64,000 nucleotides of DNA from the NCBI GenBank assembly GCA_012747475.1, contig GCA_012747475.1_3928.1, one strand, 5' to 3'. The translations under genes and the position numbers were made by a program. The stretch comes from a phage. Under the pieces are notes generated by a model. The model was not told where the DNA came from. It worked only from the letters and a program-made list of their open reading frames with translations, and did no database searches. Positions 6,072 to 39,583 of this stretch are shown here, piece by piece (the first letter of the stretch is position 1; the number at the start of each line of letters is the position of its first letter).

Positions 6072-6147
6072 GCTCCTATCGTATAATTGGCTATTACGGT
6101 TGCCTTGTAAGCAACTTATCAGGGTTCGAATCCTTGTGGGAGCACCA
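6072..6147 (+). tRNA. tRNA-Thr (anticodon TGT)
   Basis: Acceptor GCTCCTA/TGGGAGC, anticodon stem GTTGC/GCAAC with loop CTTGTAA, T-loop TTCGAAT, A + CCA. Confidence 0.7.
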
Positions 6148-6242
6148 ATTCAGAGGTCAAGTGAAAGACCGCTGGTGTCAACTGAAGACCGTAACAAATT
6201 CCACGGAGTTGAGTTAGCGGCACAACTTCAGACCTCTTTCAT

Positions 6243-6317
6243 ACTCGCTTAGTTTATATGGTAAAACATCACCCTTACAAGATGAAGAAAAAGGTTCAAG
6301 TCCTTTAGTGAGTACCA
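6243..6317 (+). tRNA. tRNA-Val (anticodon TAC)
   Basis: Acceptor ACTCGCT/AGTGAGT, D-stem GTTT/AAAC, anticodon loop CTTACAA, perfect T-arm AAAGG-TTCAAGT-CCTTT, A + CCA. Confidence 0.65.
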
Positions 6318-6318
6318 T

Positions 6319-6396
6319 GTTCCAGTATCCCAATTGGCAGAGGATGCAAGCTCAAACCTTGTATTAGTGACGGTTCGAATCCGTCTTGGAACACCA
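6319..6396 (+). tRNA. tRNA-Leu-like (anticodon CAA), short variable arm
   Basis: Acceptor GTTCCAG/TTGGAAC + A + CCA, D-loop CAATTGGCAGAG, anticodon stem GCAAG/CTTGT with loop CTCAAAC, T-arm GACGG-TTCGAAT-CCGTC. Confidence 0.55.
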
Positions 6397-6401
6397 ATTT
6401 T

Positions 6402-6477
6402 GCAGGATTAGTTCAAATGGATAGAGTAACAGTCTACGAAGCTGTTAATAGGGGTTCGAATCCCTTATCCTGCGCCA
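6402..6477 (+). tRNA. tRNA-Arg (anticodon ACG)
   Basis: Acceptor GCAGGAT/ATCCTGC (perfect), anticodon stem ACAGT/GCTGT with loop CTACGAA, T-loop TTCGAAT, G + CCA. Confidence 0.7.
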
Positions 6478-6496
6478 ATTTAAAGAGGCTATTTAG

Positions 6497-7054
6497 ATGA
6501 GATATTTGAAGTATGCTTCATGGATTTTCTTAGCTTTGTTAGAGCCATTTGCAGCAATCTTAGCAGTTATCTTAGCACCTTTCGTAGTTCCATTCTACAG
6601 TGAGAAGAAAGGACATCTGCCTTTCGGGTTCAGATGGATGGAAACTTATGACAACCCAATTGATGGTGATGAAGGTCACGTTAAAAGATGGGCTAATATT
6701 AGATGGATTGGTAAACTAGGTGTCTACATGCAAAGAGTCGGATGGCTCTGGAGAAACAAAGCTTATAACTTCTCTTACCATGTATTAGGGAGAGATGTAA
6801 AAGATGTTACTAAGTGGAAAGGTAATATCAACGTAAGTTCTGACCCTGAAGATAATCAGACAGGTTATCTCCTAATGTGGAACAGTAATGCTTGGGGATT
6901 ATTCGCTTTTATCCCATCAATTAAAATCTTTGGTAAACAATTTTACTGGAGAATTTATATTGGATGGAAACTAAAAAGTGTTGTCCCAGAAGAAAGAGCA
7001 TTCTCAAGGGAAAGAGTTATGTTGGCATTCTTTATTCATCCACTGAGAAAGTAA
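6497..7054 (+). CDS. hypothetical membrane protein
   Basis: ORF track; AAGAGG SD; hydrophobic N-terminal segment (IFLALLEPFAAILAVILAPFVVPF); embedded in tRNA cluster. Confidence 0.6.
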   Translation: MRYLKYASWIFLALLEPFAAILAVILAPFVVPFYSEKKGHLPFGFRWMETYDNPIDGDEGHVKRWANIRWIGKLGVYMQRVGWLWRNKAYNFSYHVLGRDVKDVTKWKGNINVSSDPEDNQTGYLLMWNSNAWGLFAFIPSIKIFGKQFYWRIYIGWKLKSVVPEERAFSRERVMLAFFIHPLRK

Positions 7055-7062
7055 AGATTTAA

Positions 7063-7138
7063 AGGGGATTAGTTTACAAGGTTAAAACCTCGGTCTTTGA
7101 AATCGAAGAAGTTGGTTCAATTCCAACATCCCCCGCCA
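7063..7138 (+). tRNA. tRNA-Gln (anticodon TTG)
   Basis: Acceptor AGGGGAT/ATCCCCC (A1:C72 mismatch), D-stem GTTT/AAAC, anticodon loop CTTTGAA, perfect T-arm GTTGG-TTCAATT-CCAAC, G + CCA. Confidence 0.65.
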
Positions 7139-7140
7139 AT

Positions 7141-7219
7141 GCTCCATTACTCCAATTGGCAGAGAGGCCAGACTTAAAATCTGTGTTATGTATCGGTTCG
7201 AATCCGATATGGAGTACCA
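7141..7219 (+). tRNA. tRNA-Leu-like (anticodon TAA), short variable arm
   Basis: Acceptor GCTCCAT/ATGGAGT + A + CCA, D-loop CAATTGGCAGAG, anticodon loop CTTAAAA, perfect T-arm ATCGG-TTCGAAT-CCGAT. Confidence 0.55.
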
Positions 7220-7224
7220 AATTT

Positions 7225-7300
7225 AGCGGTATAGCATAACTGGCAATGCAGCAGTCTCTGAAGCTGTCCTATTAAGGTTCAAATCCTTATGCCGCTGCCA
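7225..7300 (+). tRNA. tRNA-Gln (anticodon CTG)
   Basis: Acceptor AGCGGTA/TGCCGCT, D-stem GCAT/ATGC, anticodon stem GCAGT/GCTGT with loop CTCTGAA, perfect T-arm TAAGG-TTCAAAT-CCTTA, G + CCA. Confidence 0.55.
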
Positions 7301-7304
7301 CTTC

Positions 7305-7328
7305 TAAGGATTCTTACGAGAGTCCTTA
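7305..7328 (+). other. hairpin with conserved 12-nt loop TTCTTACGAGAG (copy 2)
   Basis: Stem TAAGGA/TCCTTA; loop shares TTCTTACGAG with hairpin at 3808..3831. Confidence 0.45.
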
Positions 7329-7331
7329 AAT

Positions 7332-7407
7332 GTGGCCTTATCATAAATGGTAATGACCCATGCTGTGAACATGGTCTATACGGGTTCAAATCCCGTAGGT
7401 CACCCCA
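7332..7407 (+). tRNA. tRNA-His (anticodon GTG)
   Basis: Acceptor GTGGCCT/AGGTCAC, perfect anticodon stem CCATG/CATGG with loop CTGTGAA, perfect T-arm ACGGG-TTCAAAT-CCCGT, C + CCA. Confidence 0.7.
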
Positions 7408-7412
7408 ATTTA

Positions 7413-7489
7413 TAGTCCAAGTAGCTTATATGGTTAAAGCGCGTGTCTGAAAAACATGAGAAGAGGGTTCAAATCCCACTGGACTACCA
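7413..7489 (+). tRNA. tRNA-Phe (anticodon GAA)
   Basis: Acceptor TAGTCCA/TGGACTA region, anticodon stem CGTGT/ACATG with loop CTGAAAA, T-loop TTCAAAT, CCA at 3' end (exact acceptor register ambiguous). Confidence 0.6.
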
Positions 7490-7505
7490 ATTTCAAAGGT
7501 GCTTA

Positions 7506-8240
7506 ATGAAAGAGATGACAGAACAAGGTAAGGAGATTTTTAATCTCTTAAAAACTGGTAAAGGGTTTTCTAACCCCCTTATTACTGGTGCAGCAGTTCT
7601 CGGTGGAACCGTAGCTGCCTCCACATCACTTGTAAGCTCTATTAGTTCTGTATCAGACCCTACAGTAAAAGATAAGCTTGTTGCTGCTGGACTTACAACA
7701 GTTCTGCTTAACAGCTTTACCACGAGTCTGGCAAGCACTACATCAACTACCAAAACACTGACAGATTACGGTCAAAAGTCCATTGATGAGTTTTCATCAC
7801 GTATGCAGGTAGCAAAAGGTTATTCTAATGTTATGGGTGCAGCAGGTGAACAAGTTGGCTGTACACCATTTAGTGGTATTATGGGTGTTGCTACAGAGTA
7901 TGGTCAAAAAGCTATTGATACGATTAACAGTGCACTAGATAGTGTTAATGGTGTGTTAAGTGACTTACAAGATGCTATTGACAAAGGTCTTGATACTATT
8001 TCTGATTTAGCTGAGCAAGCTGTTAGTAAGATTAATGAAGGTATTTCAAAAATTACAGCTTATGCAGATGAAGTTGTGCAGATGATTGAAGAAGAAGCTG
8101 CTCTTATTGCAGAGTACCTTAAAACGAATATCAATGGGTTCTTAGCAGGCATCTTACCAGACTGGTTTGATGATGCTTGTAAAACTGGTGTAATTGACAC
8201 TATTGCAACACCAGAAATGAAGAACGCATTACAGAAATAA
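7506..8240 (+). CDS. hypothetical protein
   Basis: ORF 7443..8240 trimmed to the internal ATG at 7506 to avoid overlapping tRNA-Phe; AAAGG SD. Confidence 0.5.
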   Translation: MKEMTEQGKEIFNLLKTGKGFSNPLITGAAVLGGTVAASTSLVSSISSVSDPTVKDKLVAAGLTTVLLNSFTTSLASTTSTTKTLTDYGQKSIDEFSSRMQVAKGYSNVMGAAGEQVGCTPFSGIMGVATEYGQKAIDTINSALDSVNGVLSDLQDAIDKGLDTISDLAEQAVSKINEGISKITAYADEVVQMIEEEAALIAEYLKTNINGFLAGILPDWFDDACKTGVIDTIATPEMKNALQK

Positions 8241-8242
8241 AT

Positions 8243-8335
8243 GGAAGATTAACCCTAAAAGGTAAGGGAGCAGTTTGCTAAACTGCCAGTAGCTGAGAAA
8301 TCGGTGTACCAGTTCAAGTCTGGTATCTTCCTCCA
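8243..8335 (+). tRNA. tRNA-Ser (anticodon GCT), long variable arm
   Basis: 93 nt; perfect acceptor GGAAGAT/ATCTTCC, perfect anticodon stem GCAGT/ACTGC with loop TTGCTAA, T-arm ACCAG-TTCAAGT-CTGGT, T + CCA. Confidence 0.65.
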
Positions 8336-8339
8336 ATTT

Positions 8340-8415
8340 GAATCCGTGACAGAAATGGCTATGTGCCTGTCTGCAAAACAGGTTTATAAGGGTTCGAGTC
8401 CCTTCGGATTCTCCA
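8340..8415 (+). tRNA. tRNA-Cys (anticodon GCA)
   Basis: Perfect acceptor GAATCCG/CGGATTC, perfect anticodon stem CCTGT/ACAGG with loop CTGCAAA, perfect T-arm AAGGG-TTCGAGT-CCCTT, T + CCA. Confidence 0.7.
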
Positions 8416-32565: not shown

Positions 32566-32600
32566 AAGGCTCCCGTAAAAAGGAGCCTTTTTTGTTTTTA
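32566..32600. terminator. bidirectional terminator between convergent gene blocks
   Basis: 8-bp stem AAGGCTCC/GGAGCCTT followed by TTTTTGTTTTT. Confidence 0.55.
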
Positions 32601-33498: not shown

Positions 33499-34044
33499 TC
33501 AAAAGTGTCCTTTTACTTGTGGAACATAAATTTCAAAGGTTGCTTTACCATCCTCTGATGGTTTTGACTGTACCTTTGTAAATACACTGTTATCATACAG
33601 CTTCTCAAAGAAGTTTTCAAAAGGTAAATACACAGTGGCCTCTTCAGTAACTTTATGGAAAACTGTATGGAAAACTACACCAGCATATGGTAAAGCATTG
33701 ACAAGGACACCTGCACCACCAATTACAAAGACATCTTCATCAATAGAGCTATCGAGATACTTCAAAAATGCTCCAAAGGATTCTTTGCTGGCCTTAGCAT
33801 ACATTACCTCATCTTTGCCAAAGTCTATGCCTAAGTATGGTACAGAATTTGTTAAGATGAGGTTTGCACGTTCTGGTAAAGGTTTACTACCCAGAGTCTT
33901 GAAAGTCTCATTACCCATCACTACTAAGTTGTTTTTAGTGAGTCTCTTAAACTCTTGCATATCCTGTTTATGTCGAGGCCACGGCATACCAGTTGGAGTA
34001 CCAAACTCCCCATTTTCACCACTTGCAAAGATTAATTTAATCAT
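33499..34044 (-). CDS. folA: dihydrofolate reductase
   Basis: MIKLIFA...GMPW...VVMG..TFK..G.PLP.R.N.ILT pattern; adjacent to thymidylate synthase. Confidence 0.75.
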   Translation of the reverse strand: MIKLIFASGENGEFGTPTGMPWPRHKQDMQEFKRLTKNNLVVMGNETFKTLGSKPLPERANLILTNSVPYLGIDFGKDEVMYAKASKESFGAFLKYLDSSIDEDVFVIGGAGVLVNALPYAGVVFHTVFHKVTEEATVYLPFENFFEKLYDNSVFTKVQSKPSEDGKATFEIYVPQVKGHF

Positions 34045-34301
34045 TTTGTAAATCCTTTCTTAATGAACCAGTTGATAACATTCTTCACAGCTTTATTGCT
34101 ATGGTAGATTAAGTGTGGTGTAGGTTGGTATGAACCATAAGCCCAGAAAGCAATGATTTCATTACACCCTGTACACCTTGTACTCTCTTCAGCGATATGA
34201 CCGTTGACTATTTCACTTACCTCACCTTGCAAGTCTGTACATCCACAATGTGGACATCGGATAGGTGTTCCATCAGACTCATAGCAGTGTTCAATTTTCA
34301 T
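34041..34301 (-). CDS. zinc-ribbon protein (CxxC...CxxC)
   Basis: CPHCGC ... CTGCN motifs; coupled starts and stops. Confidence 0.55.
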   Translation of the reverse strand: MKIEHCYESDGTPIRCPHCGCTDLQGEVSEIVNGHIAEESTRCTGCNEIIAFWAYGSYQPTPHLIYHSNKAVKNVINWFIKKGFTK

Positions 34302-34817
34302 TTATTTAACCTCAAAAACTGGTTCAAGAACCAATATAAAGTCTACACAGTCATCTTCTTCATCCAGAATACCATCAAAGTTCTTAGGAACGAAGTCGAA
34401 GAGGCTCATCACAAAACAGTCAGAAGTAACCTTTATAGTTCCTCCCATGTTCTCTACAGTTAACACTGTACGACTTTCTTTTACCTCCCTCAGAAGATTA
34501 CCCACAAAGTCATCTAAGAAGTACTTCATCAATGACTTAAAGCCTTTAGGATAATCTGTACCAGAGTATGTTTCAATCTGAGGCACAAGCTTAACATTTA
34601 TACTAGTCTTTGTTAAGAATGCACTAGAGAACATACTATCAGGTAGCTTACAAACAGTCTTTCCAGTACCTTCATGTTCAATCTCAACAAAACCAGCTTC
34701 ATCGCCACATGTAACTATTTTAAAAGATGCTTCATTCTCATACTGTGAAGCCATAAACTTTTTAAGCATCTCTTTAAGGAAATCTGCATGAGCATCTTGT
34801 AAGTAGACATCAATCAT
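34302..34817 (-). CDS. hypothetical protein
   Basis: ORF track. Confidence 0.55.
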   Translation of the reverse strand: MIDVYLQDAHADFLKEMLKKFMASQYENEASFKIVTCGDEAGFVEIEHEGTGKTVCKLPDSMFSSAFLTKTSINVKLVPQIETYSGTDYPKGFKSLMKYFLDDFVGNLLREVKESRTVLTVENMGGTIKVTSDCFVMSLFDFVPKNFDGILDEEDDCVDFILVLEPVFEVK

Positions 34818-34830
34818 AGTTAATCACCTA

Positions 34831-35190
34831 TTATGGGAACAGACACTTAATGTCATCGTTTTTGAAAACAAAACTCGTGTAGTTATGACCATCAACATCC
34901 AGCCAAACAGCCTGAACATCCACACCATCAAGATTCTGGTAAAGCTCTTTGATGAAGTGGTCTTTCACAATCTGACTGCTAGTTGTTTCCAGCTTAATGT
35001 TCGAGATTGCTGAACCTACAGCCATATAGCCCATGACACGTTTCTTCTCAGTATGCTTAATCTTACCATCTTTGTAAGCCATAATGAGATTGGAGAGAAT
35101 CTTCACACCATAATACTTTTCAAGGTGAGTGGGTACGCCATAAAAGCCTAATGCAAAGTTTTCAGAGTGGATAATGTTTTCACGTTTCAT
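34831..35190 (-). CDS. hypothetical protein
   Basis: ORF track. Confidence 0.55.
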   Translation of the reverse strand: MKRENIIHSENFALGFYGVPTHLEKYYGVKILSNLIMAYKDGKIKHTEKKRVMGYMAVGSAISNIKLETTSSQIVKDHFIKELYQNLDGVDVQAVWLDVDGHNYTSFVFKNDDIKCLFP

Positions 35191-35191
35191 A

Positions 35192-35521
35192 TTAATCTGC
35201 CAACCTTAAATTGAAATTAACACCAAATTTTTCACATACTTCCAACATATACTCAAGGGAAACATTCCCAGTGAGGTGGATTATGTTGGATACACGAGCC
35301 TGAGAGATACCACAAATTTTAGCAACTTGCTCTTGAGAAAGACCTCTGGATTTAATCTCTCTCTTAAAACGATGTGCAACGAAGTCTCTCATTTCGTCTA
35401 CATCCATTGGACAAACATAACTCTCCATTTCAGCCTCTCTATCAGCCTCCCAATCATCTTGTGGAGCATAAGGGTCAAAAACTTCATTCATCTTTCTTCT
35501 TCCGTTTGCGTGAAGTGTCAA
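35192..35521 (-). CDS. HTH (XRE-like) transcriptional regulator
   Basis: C-terminal helix-turn-helix LSQEQVAKICGISQARVSNI. Confidence 0.6.
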   Translation of the reverse strand: MTLHANGRRKMNEVFDPYAPQDDWEADREAEMESYVCPMDVDEMRDFVAHRFKREIKSRGLSQEQVAKICGISQARVSNIIHLTGNVSLEYMLEVCEKFGVNFNLRLAD

Positions 35522-35696
35522 TCAATGAATCTATGTTTGTAGCCCTAACCTTTTCACGTTCATCGTTAAGATAATCGTCAAGAGCTTTTTCAATCTGTGA
35601 ATCATCTTGACAGATAACTGTAAAGACTGTAAAGCCATCTGTATCATCAATTATCTTACCATAACCGCTTCTGGGATGTAACTTTTTAAGGGCCAT
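35484..35696 (-). CDS. hypothetical small protein
   Basis: ORF track; overlaps neighbour by 38 nt so true start may be internal. Confidence 0.4.
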   Translation of the reverse strand: MALKKLHPRSGYGKIIDDTDGFTVFTVICQDDSQIEKALDDYLNDEREKVRATNIDSLIDTSRKRKKKDE

Positions 35697-35697
35697 A

Positions 35698-36081
35698 TCA
35701 AATACCTGTGCAGCTTCTGTTTTCTAAGAAATACTCAACACCATACATAGCTTTTTGCATCAAATCCTCTTTAAACTGGATGCGATGATTAAGCATAGTC
35801 TGTACATCAATATCATCATGGTGCTTCTCTTTAATATTTGCAGATTGCAGGAAATACTCTGCGAGAACACGATACTGATAGTCAGTTACCTTATCAGTCA
35901 TCTCTGTCAAAGACTCTTCAGAGATTGGTTTAAGTAGCTCGCCATTAGCTAGAGCAACACCTTTTACAATCTGGCAAGTGTCTTCTGGAACACCTGATAA
36001 ATCCACATTTGGAAGTTCTGTTGCATTGACTGGTAAATTCATTACCATAACCATTGCAGCAGCTAATAAAATCTTTTTCAT
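35698..36081 (-). CDS. secreted protein with signal peptide
   Basis: N-terminal MKKILLAAAMVMVMNLPVNA signal-peptide-like segment. Confidence 0.55.
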   Translation of the reverse strand: MKKILLAAAMVMVMNLPVNATELPNVDLSGVPEDTCQIVKGVALANGELLKPISEESLTEMTDKVTDYQYRVLAEYFLQSANIKEKHHDDIDVQTMLNHRIQFKEDLMQKAMYGVEYFLENRSCTGI

Positions 36082-36512
36082 AATGACCTCAAAGTTATAT
36101 TAAATTTTGTATTACATTGATTGTAAAAATAAGCTATAACACCTGACTTGTCAACAGATTTTATAGCTTATTTGGCAGATTTTTTATAAGGCTACTGCCA
36201 TCCTTCCATACCAGACCACACCATGCAAAACCAGACTTCACATCGCCTTGCTGTGCAATACATTACTTAAAAACCCTCTTAGAAGACTCTTAAGTGATGC
36301 TGGTGAGTACACGTTGGTTTATGCTGCTCAGTATACTCACCAAATTTTCTATGTCAACAACTTTATATAAAAGCCCTGATAGCTATATGTGTTACAAAAC
36401 AAAAGATTGTGAACAAAACACCCATTGCAAAGGATGTGTTCAAAAGTTTACTTGTGATGTAAGACAATATAAAGACAACTAATGCAAACAGAATGATTGT
36501 GCTTAACATATT

Positions 36513-37613
36513 TTACTCATAATCCCTAATAACTAGCCCGACAGGGAACTGTAAAGACCCCTTACGAGTCATCTTCTGGAACTGAACCGTTAAAGGTTTA
36601 CCGATAAATTCTTCAGGATGTTCAGCAAGATACTGTTTCTTCTCATGAGTAGTCTTCCATGAGACATCTACAAAGACGTTAGGAAGAGTCTCTACAACGA
36701 ACTTACCATGACCACGCTTATCAGTCTTGACACTAGTCACTTTAAACTCTTCAGTGTGCATCTTCTTATGTTTAATCAAGAAGTATGAACGGTGACAACA
36801 CTCATAGAAGGAGTCTTCAGAGATTGAACGGTACATTGCACCTTCAAACTTAGCTTCAACCCACTTATCATGAGCTTCATCAAACTCTTCCCAAGAGTTA
36901 ACACGGATAGTCTGTACAGGAACAACTCTACAGGTATCACCAAGCTCAATAATGGGTGAGTTATCAATAACTTCACGACGCTCAGGCCAAGTTTTTGAAT
37001 TGTCACAGATATCATACCAGTAGAATTTAAGAAGGTGACGGTCTGGATTGTCAGCATTCTTAATCATAGATACAATATCTTCTAAGTCCCATCCATGAGC
37101 ATAAATCTCACCATCAAAGTCTTCTACTTGTGGATGCAATTTAAGCAACAAAAGCAAATCTGGGATTAGTTCTTCTGGGACGTTGTAAATAGTATTCTCA
37201 CGAGAATAAGCCGTGAAACTAACTGAATCATCACCTCTTGAAATTCTACAACGGACACCATCAAGTTTTGGTTGAGCATCAGCAGGGAACTTCAGATACT
37301 TTGCATGGCTAACCTTTGCAGCATCATGAGCAAGCTGTACACCTACCTTCTCAGTATTCTGTGCAGACTCTTTTGTGTAAGCGTAACCTTTACGGTCTAC
37401 TTGTTTCTTATACTTAGCAGAAACTTCAAAGAGAGCTTGCTGTTCAGCGTTACGCTCATTCTTTTTACCGATGTTTTTAGGTTCTGCTGTATACTCTTCA
37501 AACATCATCTTGCCATTTTCTTTACCGTAGGTTGTAATAACTTTGTCACCTACAGCAACGCATGACCAGACGTTGAAGGAGCCATCTTTATTTTGTTTGT
37601 ACAGAATTGTCAT
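36513..37613 (-). CDS. ATP-dependent DNA ligase
   Basis: Motif I PKLDGVRC (KxDG), DGEIY, EGAMYR, HKKMHTEEFK; start set at ATG 37613 with AGAGGA SD rather than track start 37649. Confidence 0.8.
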   Translation of the reverse strand: MTILYKQNKDGSFNVWSCVAVGDKVITTYGKENGKMMFEEYTAEPKNIGKKNERNAEQQALFEVSAKYKKQVDRKGYAYTKESAQNTEKVGVQLAHDAAKVSHAKYLKFPADAQPKLDGVRCRISRGDDSVSFTAYSRENTIYNVPEELIPDLLLLLKLHPQVEDFDGEIYAHGWDLEDIVSMIKNADNPDRHLLKFYWYDICDNSKTWPERREVIDNSPIIELGDTCRVVPVQTIRVNSWEEFDEAHDKWVEAKFEGAMYRSISEDSFYECCHRSYFLIKHKKMHTEEFKVTSVKTDKRGHGKFVVETLPNVFVDVSWKTTHEKKQYLAEHPEEFIGKPLTVQFQKMTRKGSLQFPVGLVIRDYE

Positions 37614-37614
37614 T

Positions 37615-37806
37615 TTATTCCTCTGAGTGATACCAAGTGTTGCAAGCATTACATGCGTAAAGCTCTAAGTCATTTTTATCTGGTTTATGGAAACAGTTTG
37701 CTCCACAGTAGCAACGAAACGGCTTTCCACCAACTGTCAGGATGAAGGATTGAACCTTTCCATCAGGGGTCCGTACAGCATTTTTATGCTTATCTTCTTT
37801 GTTCAT
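37615..37806 (-). CDS. small zinc-ribbon protein, paralog A (63 aa)
   Basis: KNAVRTPDG...FRCYCGANCFHKPD...YACNAC; clear paralog of 38131..38334. Confidence 0.6.
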   Translation of the reverse strand: MNKEDKHKNAVRTPDGKVQSFILTVGGKPFRCYCGANCFHKPDKNDLELYACNACNTWYHSEE

Positions 37807-37885
37807 TTATCTCTTACCTCACAAGCTATGCAGCCTTTTGAGTAGAAGGAGTGCCAAGCATGTCCACCAAAGTCTTCTTTGGTAA

Positions 37886-38134
37886 TTAAATTGAATTTAT
37901 AGCTTCCATGTGTTTTTCGTAGAAATCTAAACATTTTTCATCTTGCTCCTTTATGTAACTATCATAAAATTCAGGTGATTCTGGTCTTTCACCAAAGGAA
38001 ATAACCTTTAGGTAGTACTTCTCATATGTGGAGCTGTCTAACCAAGAATCAAATAGTAATTTCTTAGTATTAGTCTTTGGAGGGATTACCAAGCTTTTCT
38101 CATACAATTCCTTCATCTCTTGAGTTATCTTCAT
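37886..38134 (-). CDS. hypothetical protein (82 aa)
   Basis: ORF track; ATGA overlap with upstream gene. Confidence 0.55.
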   Translation of the reverse strand: MKITQEMKELYEKSLVIPPKTNTKKLLFDSWLDSSTYEKYYLKVISFGERPESPEFYDSYIKEQDEKCLDFYEKHMEAINSI

Positions 38135-38334
38135 TGCATACCCTTAATCTTACCTAAGAACCTTACACCACAATTATTACACTCGTATATGTCTAAATTT
38201 GTGTTATCAGGTTTATGAAAACAGTTTGACCCACAACGACACCGGAATAGCTTACCATCAACACGAAGAATGAATGTTTCAAGCTCACCATCTTCTGTAA
38301 GAACTGCGTTCTTAAATTTATTACCTTTACCCAT
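38131..38334 (-). CDS. small zinc-ribbon protein, paralog B (67 aa)
   Basis: KNAVLTEDG...FRCRCGSNCFHKPD...YECNNC. Confidence 0.6.
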   Translation of the reverse strand: MGKGNKFKNAVLTEDGELETFILRVDGKLFRCRCGSNCFHKPDNTNLDIYECNNCGVRFLGKIKGMQ

Positions 38335-38494
38335 TTGTACTCTCGCCTGTGTCAGATTTCATATAAGACCTATCACTACGTCTTTTAATGAAATGTACAA
38401 CGCATTTCGGTGTATCTTTTGCATCTTTGATGTGCAACCTTTCGAAACTACGCACTGTGAAGGTTGCATCTGTCATTGTTTGTTTAGATTTCAT
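38327..38494 (-). CDS. hypothetical small protein (55 aa, not in ORF track)
   Basis: Hand-translated minus-strand ORF MKSKQTMTDATF...; ATG overlaps upstream stop (ATGA) and its stop overlaps the next start. Confidence 0.4.
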   Translation of the reverse strand: MKSKQTMTDATFTVRSFERLHIKDAKDTPKCVVHFIKRRSDRSYMKSDTGESTNG

Positions 38495-38697
38495 TTTCTC
38501 TTACCACTAATCTCTACGTCAATAACTTGAACATCACCAGCAACATCAAACTTATGAATGATACTTTCCACAGTGTAAGTCCAACCCTCGATGCGAACTA
38601 ACTCACCTTCTCGTGGGACTATTGGATTGCGTTGAGCTACAGTTGTAGTGGAGTGAACAACATCATAACGATAGATATAGTTTACTAATACTTCCAT
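38491..38697 (-). CDS. hypothetical protein
   Basis: ORF 38491..38796 trimmed to internal ATG at 38697 (GAGG SD) to avoid overlap with lipoprotein gene. Confidence 0.4.
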   Translation of the reverse strand: MEVLVNYIYRYDVVHSTTTVAQRNPIVPREGELVRIEGWTYTVESIIHKFDVAGDVQVIDVEISGKRK

Positions 38698-38707
38698 CGT
38701 AAAAACC

Positions 38708-38965
38708 TCACTCAATAACCGTGGTATGTGATTGACCATTTTTGCCATAGCTATAAGATGTTGTTGTTTGAGAGTTTGGGCATCTGACAACAACAATATC
38801 TCTGCTTATAGCATCACCATTGAGTTTGTAGATTTTGCAGTCTTGCATCTCTGGAGGGAGGCTGTAAGAAGCATCTTTGTTTTCATAAGATGGGTTGCAG
38901 CCAGCCAGAAAAATTACTCCAAGTGCAACCATTGCTTTCACACAACTCTTAACCTTATTGTTCAC
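38708..38965 (-). CDS. lipoprotein (signal peptide + lipobox)
   Basis: MNNKVKSCVKAMVALGVIFLAGC: signal peptide with lipobox cysteine. Confidence 0.6.
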   Translation of the reverse strand: MNNKVKSCVKAMVALGVIFLAGCNPSYENKDASYSLPPEMQDCKIYKLNGDAISRDIVVVRCPNSQTTTSYSYGKNGQSHTTVIE

Positions 38966-39097
38966 GATAGTCTACCTCTCTGTATGTTTTTAAATAGTGA
39001 GTGATGAGTTCTGGTAATTCACTACGTTTAACGTTTGAACGAAGAAGTGTCCAGTCAAAACCTTTACCAACCCTTCCCCAGAGACTGTACATCTTCT

Positions 39098-39331
39098 TCA
39101 TAGCAACTCCAGAATATCAATACGTTCACCTTTGAGTACTCCAGTACGGTCTCTTGCAATCTTACCGTCAACAATAAGGATGTGTGCAGACCTTAAAGAT
39201 TCACTATTAAAACCTTTTACGAACTTACTAGGCATCACTACAATAAGCATCTCCTGAATTAACTCTGGAGTATAGCAATTGTCGTGAAGTTGCTGAATAA
39301 CGTCTGCAAGTGTCATTTTTGATGTCTCCAA
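39098..39331 (-). CDS. hypothetical protein
   Basis: ORF track. Confidence 0.5.
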   Translation of the reverse strand: METSKMTLADVIQQLHDNCYTPELIQEMLIVVMPSKFVKGFNSESLRSAHILIVDGKIARDRTGVLKGERIDILELL

Positions 39332-39522
39332 TATTCAATATCAATAAGTTCTTGTGCAATGCTTTTCAGATTACCTTTCAAGAAAACCTTCTCAGAACCT
39401 GACAGAGAAGAATTGTCAATTAGCCTGTTCATTCTCTCAAACAACTTCTGCTTACGGCTCTTGATAGTTTCCTTCGAAGCACCTTTCATCATCGCTGCAT
39501 GGGTTCTTCCACGGTGGCTCAT
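39313..39522 (-). CDS. hypothetical protein
   Basis: ORF track. Confidence 0.5.
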   Translation of the reverse strand: MSHRGRTHAAMMKGASKETIKSRKQKLFERMNRLIDNSSLSGSEKVFLKGNLKSIAQELIDIEYWRHQK

Positions 39523-39583
39523 AAGTCCTCCTATACAAGATACAGTATAAGGTACTCTTCCATGAGCACCTTGTCAATACTAA

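Follow-up and report, generated by a model that had tools for sequence, protein, structure and literature searches.

Felix O1 and Bas63 provide described counterparts of the locus analysed here. In Felix O1, RT-PCR placed the transcript maximum of ORF81 at 10 min and those of ORFs 80, 83, 84, 87, 88, 89, 90, 93 and 96 at 25 min (PMC3185647), and phages of this type are reported to adsorb to LPS as receptor (PMC8300805). For Bas63, whose gene numbers equal its locus tags, a single preprint (PMC11482910) is the source of the Hhe result: it reports g40, which encodes the zinc-ribbon protein and lies upstream of the ligase gene, as a trigger of Hhe defence, toxic only in cells with Hhe, and as more dispensable in several defence strains. 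The same preprint calls Bas63 gene 32 Lar-like and finds it conditionally essential by host strain, being less needed in DH10B.

The window, the whole 64,000-nt stretch of DNA analysed, belongs to a Felix O1-like phage (Felixounavirus). Its DHFR-to-DNA polymerase block matches 260 phage records at 90-96% identity, nearly all of them Felixounavirus, and one-to-one gene maps link it to pSJ21, Bas63 (genes 32-45) and Felix O1 (ORF82-94). The block is the middle of a leftward transcription unit running from DNA polymerase to thymidylate synthase, in which roughly 16 small accessory genes surround an ATP-dependent DNA ligase (Table 1). The accessory genes include three zinc-ribbon proteins, namely two diverged tandem paralogs and one weakly Lar-like protein, together with an XRE regulator and three envelope-directed proteins (a lipoprotein, a Sec-secreted protein and a small membrane protein); for about eight open reading frames, relatives of known function were not detectable. 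We assign a probability of roughly 60% to the best explanation as a whole, that is, to identity, content, evolution, zinc-ribbon mechanism and lipoprotein reading taken together.

Table 1. Features of the DHFR-to-DNA polymerase block, in window coordinates.
Feature	Coordinates	Strand	Family or counterpart
86-aa CxxC...CxxC zinc-ribbon protein, weakly Lar-like	34041..34301	-	phrog_2993; Felix O1 ORF82, Bas63 gene 32
171-aa protein	34302..34817	-	phrog_4422, E 3.6e-91; Felix O1 ORF83
119-aa protein	34831..35190	-	phrog_4116; Felix O1 ORF84
XRE-type helix-turn-helix regulator, 99 aa from ATG	35192..35491	-	Pfam HTH_3; phrog_1373 'transcriptional regulator'
70-aa protein	35484..35696	-	phrog_4473; Felix O1 ORF86
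127-aa protein, N-terminal Sec-type signal peptide	35698..36081	-	phrog_4332; Felix O1 ORF87
Conserved non-coding spacer, 281 nt	36082..36362	-	two sigma70-like sites, hairpin then U-run
48-aa hydrophobic membrane protein, two segments	36363..36509	-	phrog_22006; Bas63 0038
ATP-dependent DNA ligase, 366 aa from ATG at 37613	36513..37613	-	Felix O1 Gp88
Zinc-ribbon paralog A, 63 aa	37615..37806	-	phrog_5768
Doubtful 43-aa ORF	37803..37934	-	partial phrog_20095 match
82-aa protein between the two paralogs	37886..38134	-	phrog_32421
Zinc-ribbon paralog B, 67 aa	38131..38334	-	phrog_5768
55-aa protein	38327..38494	-	phrog_25478
68-aa protein	38491..38697	-	phrog_4427; Felix O1 ORF90
85-aa lipoprotein precursor, GTG start	38708..38965	-	phrog_902; Felix O1 ORF91
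48-aa protein	38955..39101	-	phrog_2381; Felix O1 ORF92
72-aa protein	39098..39316	-	phrog_4230; Felix O1 ORF93
69-aa basic protein	39313..39522	-	phrog_5180; Felix O1 ORF94

A first-pass annotation had described this interval as a dense, tightly coupled island of about 15 small early genes between DHFR and DNA polymerase, and its observations were confirmed in part. Both flanking genes are present, and the frames it named were recovered on the minus strand at the same positions, but the count is 17-18; many of the genes are indeed small, yet the 366-aa ligase, the largest gene, had gone unmentioned, and the interval is therefore not purely a small-protein island. Tight coupling holds at the junctions, which range from -11 to +13 nt and often form ATGA overlaps, and is broken by the spacer. 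The genes form two translationally coupled runs, from polymerase to the 48-aa membrane protein and from the secreted protein to thyA, with the spacer and its sigma70-like sites standing between them. As for the label 'early', the sequence does not show it, and most of the Felix O1 orthologues tested peak at 25 min.

Within the spacer, one promoter-like site (36357..36330, TTGACA-16-TATACT) matches at 11/12 positions and a second lies at 36154..36126. Because a promoter scan returned 27 sites against 30.0 +/- 4.3 in shuffled sequence, and hence no excess, the support for these two sites comes from conservation and not from statistics: the spacer is nearly invariant among Felix O1, Bas63 and pSJ21. 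Its fold has a z score of -3.27, and it matches no Rfam family. A bidirectional terminator at 32566-32589 corresponds to t79/t80 of Felix O1 (PMC3185647).

Among the individual genes, the ligase scores 33.7 bits against Pfam DNA_ligase_A_M (cut-off 26.2), matches phrog_114 at E 3.6e-97, falls below threshold for DNA_ligase_OB_2 (23.5 bits, cut-off 28) and displays the KLDG adenylation motif in its translation; records of relatives annotate it likewise, and it is a housekeeping replication gene. The XRE-type regulator and the signal-peptide protein proposed in the first pass both stand. The regulator reaches 39.4 bits against HTH_3 (E 6.1e-10, cut-off 23); its frame extends to a TTG at 35521, the ATG start being taken as in the pSJ21 and Bas63 annotations, and the gene for the 70-aa protein overlaps that start by 8 nt. 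The secreted protein begins MKKILLAAAMVMVMNLPVNA/TELP, a typical Sec signal as read from the translation, carries two Cys in its mature part and has no PDB match. Neither the 171-aa nor the 119-aa protein matches Pfam or any PDB sequence. The start of the 68-aa protein was set by the match of phrog_4427 to residues 34-101 of a longer frame; the phrog_4230 match of the 72-aa protein likewise begins at residue 6 of a longer frame, with ATGA overlaps on both sides, and the 69-aa basic protein is the first gene past the polymerase, 61 nt from its stop.

Small-gene content differs among close relatives. The 48-aa membrane protein is absent from Felix O1, the 82-aa protein is present in pSJ21 and absent from Felix O1 and Bas63, and the 55-aa protein is absent from all three. 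The 43-aa frame shares 49 nt with the 82-aa gene, has an AAGGAG upstream and an ATGA overlap with paralog A, and lacks annotation in pSJ21.

Zinc-ribbon paralogs A and B are identical at 33/59 residues (56%, E 1e-25), which bears out the paralogy proposed earlier; their metal motif is C-x-C...C-x-x-C, where CxxC...CxxC had been read, with C32, C34, C52 and C55 invariant. Felix O1 and Bas63 have one zinc-ribbon gene where the window has two, and theirs is a recombinant of the form 5'-B::3'-A: nucleotides 30-120 of Felix O1 ORF89 agree with copy B at 89/90 positions and nucleotides 120-180 with copy A at 59/60, whereas A and B share only 111/180 nucleotides with each other. The 5' two-thirds of B and the 3' half of A are nearly identical to both ORF89 and Bas63 gene 40. 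It follows that whatever lies between the tandem paralogs is lost or regained when the two recombine homologously. Of 226 phage records, only about 10 have two copies.

Both paralogs are members of a widespread domain family that has no name, retrieved in 460 representative clusters by profile search at E<=1e-3 (104 at E<=1e-10) and in 407 clusters by alignment search. Over 79 family sequences, C32, C34, N37, F39, H40, P42, C52, N53 and C55 are invariant, and the AlphaFold model of paralog B is confident (pLDDT 87.5). The domain is fused to Lar (PF14354) in two proteins, at E 3e-11 and 2.5e-8 and above the gathering score, and further partners comprise a dATP/dGTP pyrophosphohydrolase, NUDIX and a Tad2-like domain; since 78 of the 85 long members carry N-terminal extensions with no recognisable domain, the fusion evidence depends on few proteins. 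Genomic contexts vary: one member, on a contig of 332 kb, adjoins an N6-adenine methyltransferase, another phage contig places one within a ligase/SNF2/polymerase module, and Pseudomonas and Cupriavidus prophages hold members between a cI-like repressor and erf/recT-yqaJ-ssb genes. Several GenBank records name paralog B 'DNA ligase', a name for which there is no domain support.

Together with the Hhe report, these data suggest that the pair act as small cytoplasmic, metal-stabilised binding modules of the early-to-middle phase, most likely binding some conserved component of host DNA processing or defence in the manner of anti-restriction or anti-nuclease factors; the Hhe helicase-nuclease defence would then sense either that activity or the zinc-ribbon protein itself. 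The third zinc-ribbon protein, which is encoded beside DHFR, carries a true CxxC...CxxC motif and had not been singled out in the first pass, could be a Lar-type restriction-alleviation factor. It falls short of curated Lar thresholds (NCBIfam TIGR03655, E 1.6e-3, 18.7 bits against a cut-off of 39.6), matches ECs_2282_CxxC at E 2.5e-4, and gives no match to Pfam Lar_restr_allev at E<=1. The proposal that the block holds anti-defence or host-interaction genes thus draws some support from Bas63 genes 32 and 40 and from the Lar and Tad2-like fusions, and the earlier interpretation is supported in part.

Other readings of the zinc-ribbon proteins have to be set against this one. They could be replication or repair accessory factors with no anti-defence role, for example nick- or DNA-end-binding partners of the adjacent ligase, in which case Hhe would sense a replication-associated protein. 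Copy A does end 1 nt before the ligase ATG, in a helicase/polymerase module another family member is found three genes away from an ATP-dependent ligase, prophage members adjoin erf/recT, yqaJ and ssb, and the GenBank label points the same way; however, that label lacks domain support, ligase fusions number 0 among the 150 best representatives (mostly 51-234 aa), a ligase is missing from most contexts, and those fusion partners that can be recognised are Lar, Tad2-like and nucleotide hydrolase domains, with no repair enzyme among them. We regard this possibility as unlikely. A role in host takeover through binding of RNA polymerase or the translation machinery, modelled on the cellular zinc-ribbon factors TFS/Rpb9 and on ribosomal zinc-ribbon proteins, is more doubtful still, given that no structural score rose above noise for a fold of 50 residues and that neither context nor fusion indicates transcription. 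Least probable is the view that most of the small frames are dispensable filler, left over or hitch-hiking selfishly without any selected function, and that the duplication behind the paralogs was neutral. Close relatives do lack the second zinc-ribbon copy and the genes for the 48-aa, 55-aa and 82-aa proteins, yet all frames fall in PHROG families with strong scores, the orthologues tested are transcribed, and the nine invariant zinc-ribbon positions across 79 diverse sequences, together with a lipobox kept across genera, indicate purifying selection. Unexpressed or housekeeping genes had been named in the first pass as the outcome that would speak against its reading; the ligase is of the latter kind, while the small-gene orthologues tested are transcribed.

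The lipoprotein is genuine, as the first-pass annotation had held: a positively charged N-terminus and hydrophobic core precede an L-A-G-C lipobox with Asn at +2, and the mature part has two conserved Cys. Its family spans unrelated phages of Vibrio, Acinetobacter, Klebsiella and enterobacteria (592 phage records, 298 of them Vibrio); lipobox and both Cys are retained in the Vibrio and Acinetobacter homologues, which sit among small genes, the Vibrio copy adjoining replication genes. Its structure model is unreliable (pLDDT 53.8). We propose that it would modify the envelope without dependence on any particular receptor. The comparison drawn earlier was with receptor-masking lipoproteins of other virulent phages. 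On such a reading it would be a superinfection-exclusion factor, shielding the receptor that the phage itself uses from within the periplasm, as T5 Llp and the Cor proteins do with FhuA. A small outer-membrane-type lipoprotein with two Cys, encoded within a leftward replication and nucleotide-metabolism unit, fits such a role, and T5 Llp is also a small lipoprotein made shortly after infection. Nevertheless, there is no similarity to sequences of solved protein chains at E<=10 (Llp structures are published, PMC9586334), the gene and the tail-fibre genes are some 6 kb apart, so that it is not beside a receptor-binding protein gene, the hosts of the family cannot have one common receptor, and LPS, the reported receptor, cannot be plugged by a periplasmic lipoprotein; the earlier comparison is not supported, and receptor masking is improbable.

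The block as a region is a known, ordinary and well-conserved accessory stretch of Felix O1-like phages, and its one moderately interesting lead is the duplicated zinc-ribbon gene, whose large family a published screen ties to a bacterial anti-phage defence.

The block at 34041-39522, between the DHFR and DNA polymerase genes, contains one lead worth following, namely an unnamed family of zinc-ribbon domains that has been linked to Hhe, a bacterial anti-phage defence. The region as such is of little importance, being a standard and long-sequenced part of Felix O1-type genomes. It matches 260 phage records by megablast, 147 of which cover at least 80% of the interval, mostly at 90-96% identity; because these matches are almost all Felix O1-like phages of Escherichia, Salmonella, Shigella and Citrobacter, the source of the window is placed by its sequence in the genus Felixounavirus or close beside it, an identity that 25 plus-strand tRNA genes in three clusters also fit. 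None of the matching records is identical, the best reaching 97% coverage at 93% identity, or 88% at 96%. Since the block entered the databases with the Felix O1 genome and is common to hundreds of isolates, it is, as a region, ordinary and already known.

From frd to the DNA polymerase, gene content and order are those of Felix O1 ORF82-ORF94 (NC_005282) and of genes 32-45 of Bas63 (Escherichia phage JohannRWettstein, MZ501086), the ligase, XRE regulator, secreted protein and lipoprotein being common to all three blocks; the Felix O1 counterparts of thymidylate synthase, DHFR, ligase and polymerase are ORF80, ORF81, ORF88 and ORF96. The window has two zinc-ribbon copies as well as an 82-aa and a 55-aa gene, whereas both relatives lack these two small genes and possess a single zinc-ribbon gene; its 48-aa membrane gene is missing from Felix O1, and the related phage pSJ21 combines both zinc-ribbon copies and the 82-aa gene with the absence of the 55-aa gene. 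The polymerase-to-thyA stretch is a conserved unit of Felix O1-like phages in which small accessory genes alternate with those for the ligase and the XRE regulator, and the accessory content differs from isolate to isolate. An HNH endonuclease gene separates block and polymerase in Felix O1 (ORF95), Bas63 (0046) and pSJ21, whereas in the window a short gap alone precedes the polymerase stop; with the polymerase intact at 909 aa, this gap looks like an unoccupied homing site. The polymerase gene of pSJ21 is annotated in two pieces.

The first-pass annotation had described the block as a dense island of about 15 small, tightly coupled early genes, a description that is mostly correct but leaves things out. 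All the ORFs that it named are present on the minus strand, and consecutive junctions of -11 to +13 nt, with many ATGA overlaps, confirm the tight coupling, but the run is broken by a non-coding spacer. The small genes exist, yet the ORFs number 17-18, one of them doubtful, and the largest gene of the interval, omitted from that reading, encodes an ATP-dependent DNA ligase with a KLDG motif (phrog_114; Pfam DNA_ligase_A_M, 33.7 bits against a cut-off of 26.2). The XRE / Cro-C1 type assigned to the HTH regulator is confirmed, PF01381 HTH_3 reaching 39.4 bits (cut-off 23) over residues 53-103 of the longer form of the ORF. When all 18 ORFs were scanned against Pfam, NCBIfam and PHROGs, curated thresholds were reached by just two proteins, the ligase and the HTH regulator, and all the others fell into PHROGs of unknown function; PDB sequence searches with the 171-aa, 127-aa and 119-aa proteins returned no match.

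Features of the window referred to in the text
Feature	Coordinates	Strand	Size	Remarks
tRNA genes	3048-8415	+	25 genes
Terminator	32566-32589			Perfect bidirectional hairpin after thyA; sequence identical to Felix O1 t79/t80
86-aa protein	34041-34301	-	86 aa	Felix O1 ORF82, Bas63 gene 32
XRE regulator	35192-35491	-
Secreted protein	35698-36081	-	127 aa
Spacer	36082-36362	-	281 nt	Between 48-aa gene and secreted-protein gene
Spacer hairpin with U-run	36173..36127
Strong sigma70-like site	36357..36330			11/12 consensus positions
DNA ligase	36513-37613
Overlap of extended ligase frame with copy A end	37615-37649		35 nt	Upstream ATG at 37649
Zinc-ribbon copy A	37615-37806	-	63 aa
Doubtful ORF	37803-37934		43 aa
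Zinc-ribbon copy B	38131-38334	-	67 aa
Lipoprotein	38708-38965	-	85 aa	Felix O1 ORF91
Gap before polymerase stop	39523-39583		61 nt

Two points of gene calling concern the surroundings of copy A. The 43-aa ORF is doubtful as a real gene; it shares 49 nt with the 3' end of the 82-aa gene, is preceded by AAGGAG, has a stop that overlaps the copy A start (ATGA), is without annotation in pSJ21, and matches phrog_20095 over its C-terminal 27 residues only. The ligase frame remains open upstream as far as an ATG within copy A; the equivalent upstream ATG is the annotated start in Bas63, and the downstream ATG in Felix O1 and pSJ21. One cluster of the zinc-ribbon family (P0004) looks like a frame-shifted read-through from the zinc-ribbon gene into this upstream extension of the ligase.

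Genes 96 to 80 of Felix O1 have been treated as one leftward transcription unit (PMC3185647). The tested Felix O1 orthologues are expressed, but because most of their RT-PCR maxima fall at 25 min (ORFs 80, 83, 84, 87, 88, 89, 90, 93 and 96), against 5 min for ORF95, the HNH endonuclease absent in the window, and 10 min for ORF81 (PMC3185647), the designation of these genes as early is only loosely correct. The spacer that interrupts the run hardly differs between the window, Felix O1, Bas63 and pSJ21, the Bas63 version bearing a (GGTTAGGTAT)n insertion. It contains two sigma70-like sites; the ~170 nt after the strong one fold better than shuffles (z -3.27), and the loop of its U-run hairpin includes the -35 of the second promoter-like site. 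The spacer might give rise to a small RNA, which would run for roughly 200 nt from 36322 to about 36127, or to a regulated leader; Rfam and tRNA scans of it gave no match. Some relatives carry two or three partial copies (361 places in 231 records); the window has one, a search for a second having found none.

The two zinc-ribbon proteins are paralogs, as the first-pass annotation had proposed (33/59 identical residues, E 1e-25; both phrog_5768). The CxxC...CxxC motif that it assigned to them has to be replaced by CxC...CxxC, with ligand cysteines C32, C34, C52 and C55 arranged in two knuckles and invariant in 79 sequences; a few relatives have CxxC in place of CxC as the first knuckle. Copy B occurs by tblastn at 236 places in 226 phage records, so that about ten records have two copies. 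In Felix O1, nt 30-120 of the single gene (ORF89) are identical to copy B at 89/90 positions and nt 120-180 to copy A at 59/60, the two copies themselves agreeing at 111/180 positions, and the single gene of Bas63 follows the same pattern. Because the 5' part is thus nearly identical to B and the 3' part to A, while A and B differ widely in sequence, the single-copy gene of both phages is a 5'-B::3'-A recombinant, with the crossover in the common CFHKPD-coding stretch. Such a hybrid is the expected product of homologous recombination between tandem paralogs, with loss of the intervening genes; tandem zinc-ribbon paralogs, that is, recombine into single hybrid genes. The 67-aa protein is called 'DNA ligase' in several records (e.g. 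OK539833, MN850619) and in one NCBI/UniRef cluster. Identification of either copy as an ATP-dependent DNA ligase, or as a detached domain of one, was rejected, neither a ligase domain nor a ligase-length fusion having been found, and the name is probably a propagated annotation error stemming from the position beside the real ligase.

Neither paralog matches a Pfam or NCBIfam model, and a sequence profile search of the PDB with the domain brought up nothing but spurious matches to C2H2 fingers. When 1.84 billion representative proteins were searched exhaustively with a profile, 460 clusters (at 50% identity) passed E<=1e-3, of which 104 also passed E<=1e-10; an alignment-based search of 90% clusters yielded 407. 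The family motif is G-K-x-F-R-C-x-C-G-C-N-V-F-H-K-P-D ... Y-x-C-N-x-C, with nine positions invariant over 79 sequences. In more than half of the representatives the domain forms the C-terminus of proteins of 95-234 aa, and a recognisable extra domain is present in 7 of the 85 longer proteins: Lar in two, and dATP/dGTP pyrophosphohydrolase, NUDIX, Tad2-like, RyR and DUF7128 in one each. In both Lar fusions (P0026, P0209) the Lar match exceeds the gathering score and spans residues 3-61 and 3-72, respectively, which lie in the N-terminal half only; the C-terminal half is a separate unit, formed by the paralog domain. On the 332-kb metagenome contig Ga0394877_0000015 (L009, 3805-5405), which is probably from a jumbo phage, a Lar fusion gene immediately follows an N6-adenine methyltransferase gene (N6_Mtase/Eco57I), an arrangement suggestive of a compact anti-restriction pair. 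Free-standing members occur in Pseudomonas aeruginosa and Cupriavidus prophages between a cI-type repressor gene and erf/recT, yqaJ and ssb genes, another member lies inside a ligase/SNF2/AAA_24/polymerase module, and others stand in runs of unannotated small genes. This is a large family without a Pfam model or a solved relative, placed in temperate phages among anti-restriction and recombination genes.

A third zinc-ribbon protein, on whose ribbon the first-pass annotation was silent, is the 86-aa protein beside DHFR, which has a true CxxC...CxxC. It scores 18.7 bits (E 1.6e-3) against the Lar model TIGR03655, below the cut-off of 39.6, its match to the ECs_2282 CxxC family is also sub-threshold, and Pfam Lar_restr_allev (PF14354) gives no match at E<=1; a profile-profile comparison with the paralog family returns 54% probability over the two knuckles. 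As these matches are sub-threshold, the Lar label is plausible rather than established. The Bas63 orthologue, gene 32, has been described as Lar-like, and the phage can do without it more readily in DH10B than in three other strains, which possess type IV restriction systems that DH10B lacks (PMC11482910). The 86-aa protein may be a Lar-type factor.

The link between the paralogs and Hhe comes from the PhageMaP preprint, in which a Bas63 knockout library was analysed with gene numbers that equal locus tags (PMC11482910); the numbering agrees with g79 and g80 as NAD-salvage enzymes and with g84 and g85 as rIIA and rIIB. Gene g40 was more dispensable in several defence-carrying strains, and its expression alone impaired growth only in cells with the Hhe helicase-nuclease system, in a single growth assay of that preprint (PMC11482910). 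What Bas63 gene 40 encodes is the zinc-ribbon hybrid, B::A of the window copies, and it is for this hybrid that Hhe toxicity is reported.

The preferred reading is that the zinc-ribbon domain is most likely a small binding module whose target would be a DNA-processing or defence component conserved in hosts; this would fit the strongly conserved non-ligand residues, the Lar and Tad2-like fusions, the early-operon position in prophages and the Hhe result. A bolder reading is given a probability of roughly one in four: the domain would represent a new, widespread phage anti-defence family that inhibits a host nuclease-helicase (type I restriction enzyme or RecBCD), Hhe would have evolved to detect it, and tandem copies and hybrids would vary the sensed surface. 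The adjacent ligase gene and the family member within a ligase-containing module bring to mind a cofactor of ligation or repair, and a small zinc ribbon might conceivably bind RNA polymerase or the ribosome; both proposals have less support than a defence-directed role, with its Lar and Tad2-like fusions and Hhe-dependent toxicity. Less supported, too, is the idea that the small ORFs are neutral filler. The anti-defence and host-takeover functions that had been suggested for the island were generic in wording and, as functional labels, mostly remain so, but they find partial support for two genes. Given the family size, the fusions, the prophage position and the activation of Hhe by the Bas63 orthologue, the zinc-ribbon gene is a concrete candidate with which to work out what Hhe senses and possibly to define a new anti-restriction or anti-nuclease domain, and for this the A, B and hybrid series among natural isolates provides ready-made variants.

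Among the envelope proteins, the lipoprotein call was sound: the 85-aa ORF has a GTG start, a charged N-terminus, a hydrophobic core and a lipobox LAG/C, its segment MNNKVKSCVKAMVALGVIFLAG/C conforming to the pattern [LVI][ASTVI][GAS]C. Across ten relatives the G-C is invariant and preceded by L-[ASTV], and homologues in Vibrio and Acinetobacter phages have LVGC and VVGC. The protein belongs to phrog_902 and is found by tblastn in 592 phage records, 298 of them from Vibrio phages, others from Acinetobacter, Klebsiella and Erwinia phages. Homologues in an Acinetobacter phage (Obolenskvirus) and in a Vibrio phage of 114 kb retain the lipobox and both cysteines of the mature part and are likewise sited among small genes, flanked in the Vibrio phage by origin-binding protein, helicase and NAD-dependent ligase genes; in the Acinetobacter phage an 'immunity protein' gene is the only named neighbour. 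Asn follows the lipidated Cys, a residue that under the usual E. coli sorting rule predicts outer-membrane localisation, which is therefore predicted here. All close relatives (P0006-P0016) bear a precomputed Pfam label, PF16225, which a Pfam-A scan did not report for them or for the distant homologues even at E<=10. The 127-aa secreted protein does begin with a typical Sec signal peptide; searches of Pfam and PHROGs, and for this protein also of the PDB, found no informative relatives of it or of the 48-aa membrane protein.

The proposed likeness of the lipoprotein to receptor-masking lipoproteins (Llp/Cor) found no support. A profile of the ten relatives, run against all PDB chains at E<=10, found only an unrelated methyltransferase at E 1, and the structure model, with a pLDDT of 53.8, is below usable confidence. 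Llp and Cor genes sit beside the gene of the receptor-binding protein; in Bas63 the lipoprotein gene is at ~29.3 kb, within the replication unit and well beyond the last tail-fibre gene, which stops at ~23.0 kb. Because the family spans phages of unrelated hosts, masking of one receptor is hard to reconcile with it, and LPS is the reported receptor of Felix O1-type phages (PMC8300805). Placement, host spread, receptor type and the PDB result all count against receptor masking, which has less support than an alteration of the envelope that would be independent of the receptor.

Set against known systems, the lipoprotein resembles T5 Llp and Cor as a small phage-encoded lipoprotein of a virulent phage with Cys in its mature part, and departs from them in lacking both detectable sequence similarity and a neighbouring receptor-binding protein gene, in belonging to a family found in phages of unrelated hosts, and in a reported receptor that is LPS and not an outer-membrane protein. 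Clusters of small, non-essential early genes are familiar from virulent phages, as in the early ORF clusters of T4 and the pre-early region of T5, and from the PL accessory region of lambda. The block shares with them dense, translationally coupled small genes that vary among close relatives and are enriched in host-interaction functions, but its small genes are interleaved with polymerase, ligase, DHFR and thymidylate synthase in one transcription unit, and the tested Felix O1 orthologues peak at 25 min and not immediately.

Closer parallels exist for the zinc-ribbon proteins. Like Lar of the Rac prophage and Ral of lambda, they are small early phage zinc-ribbon proteins; the 86-aa protein matches the Lar family weakly and has a Bas63 orthologue described as Lar-like and host-dependent, and the paralog domain is fused to true Lar domains. 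Unlike Lar (PF14354, TIGR03655), all three proteins stay below the curated thresholds, and the paralog domain has a motif of its own, FRCxCGCNVFHKPD...YxCNxC. Phage proteins may also serve as defence triggers, as with RecBCD inhibitors sensed by retrons and Ocr sensed by PARIS. The Bas63 zinc-ribbon protein is a candidate for this class: in one preprint growth assay it was toxic alone in the presence of Hhe, which is how 'guarded' anti-defence proteins behave.
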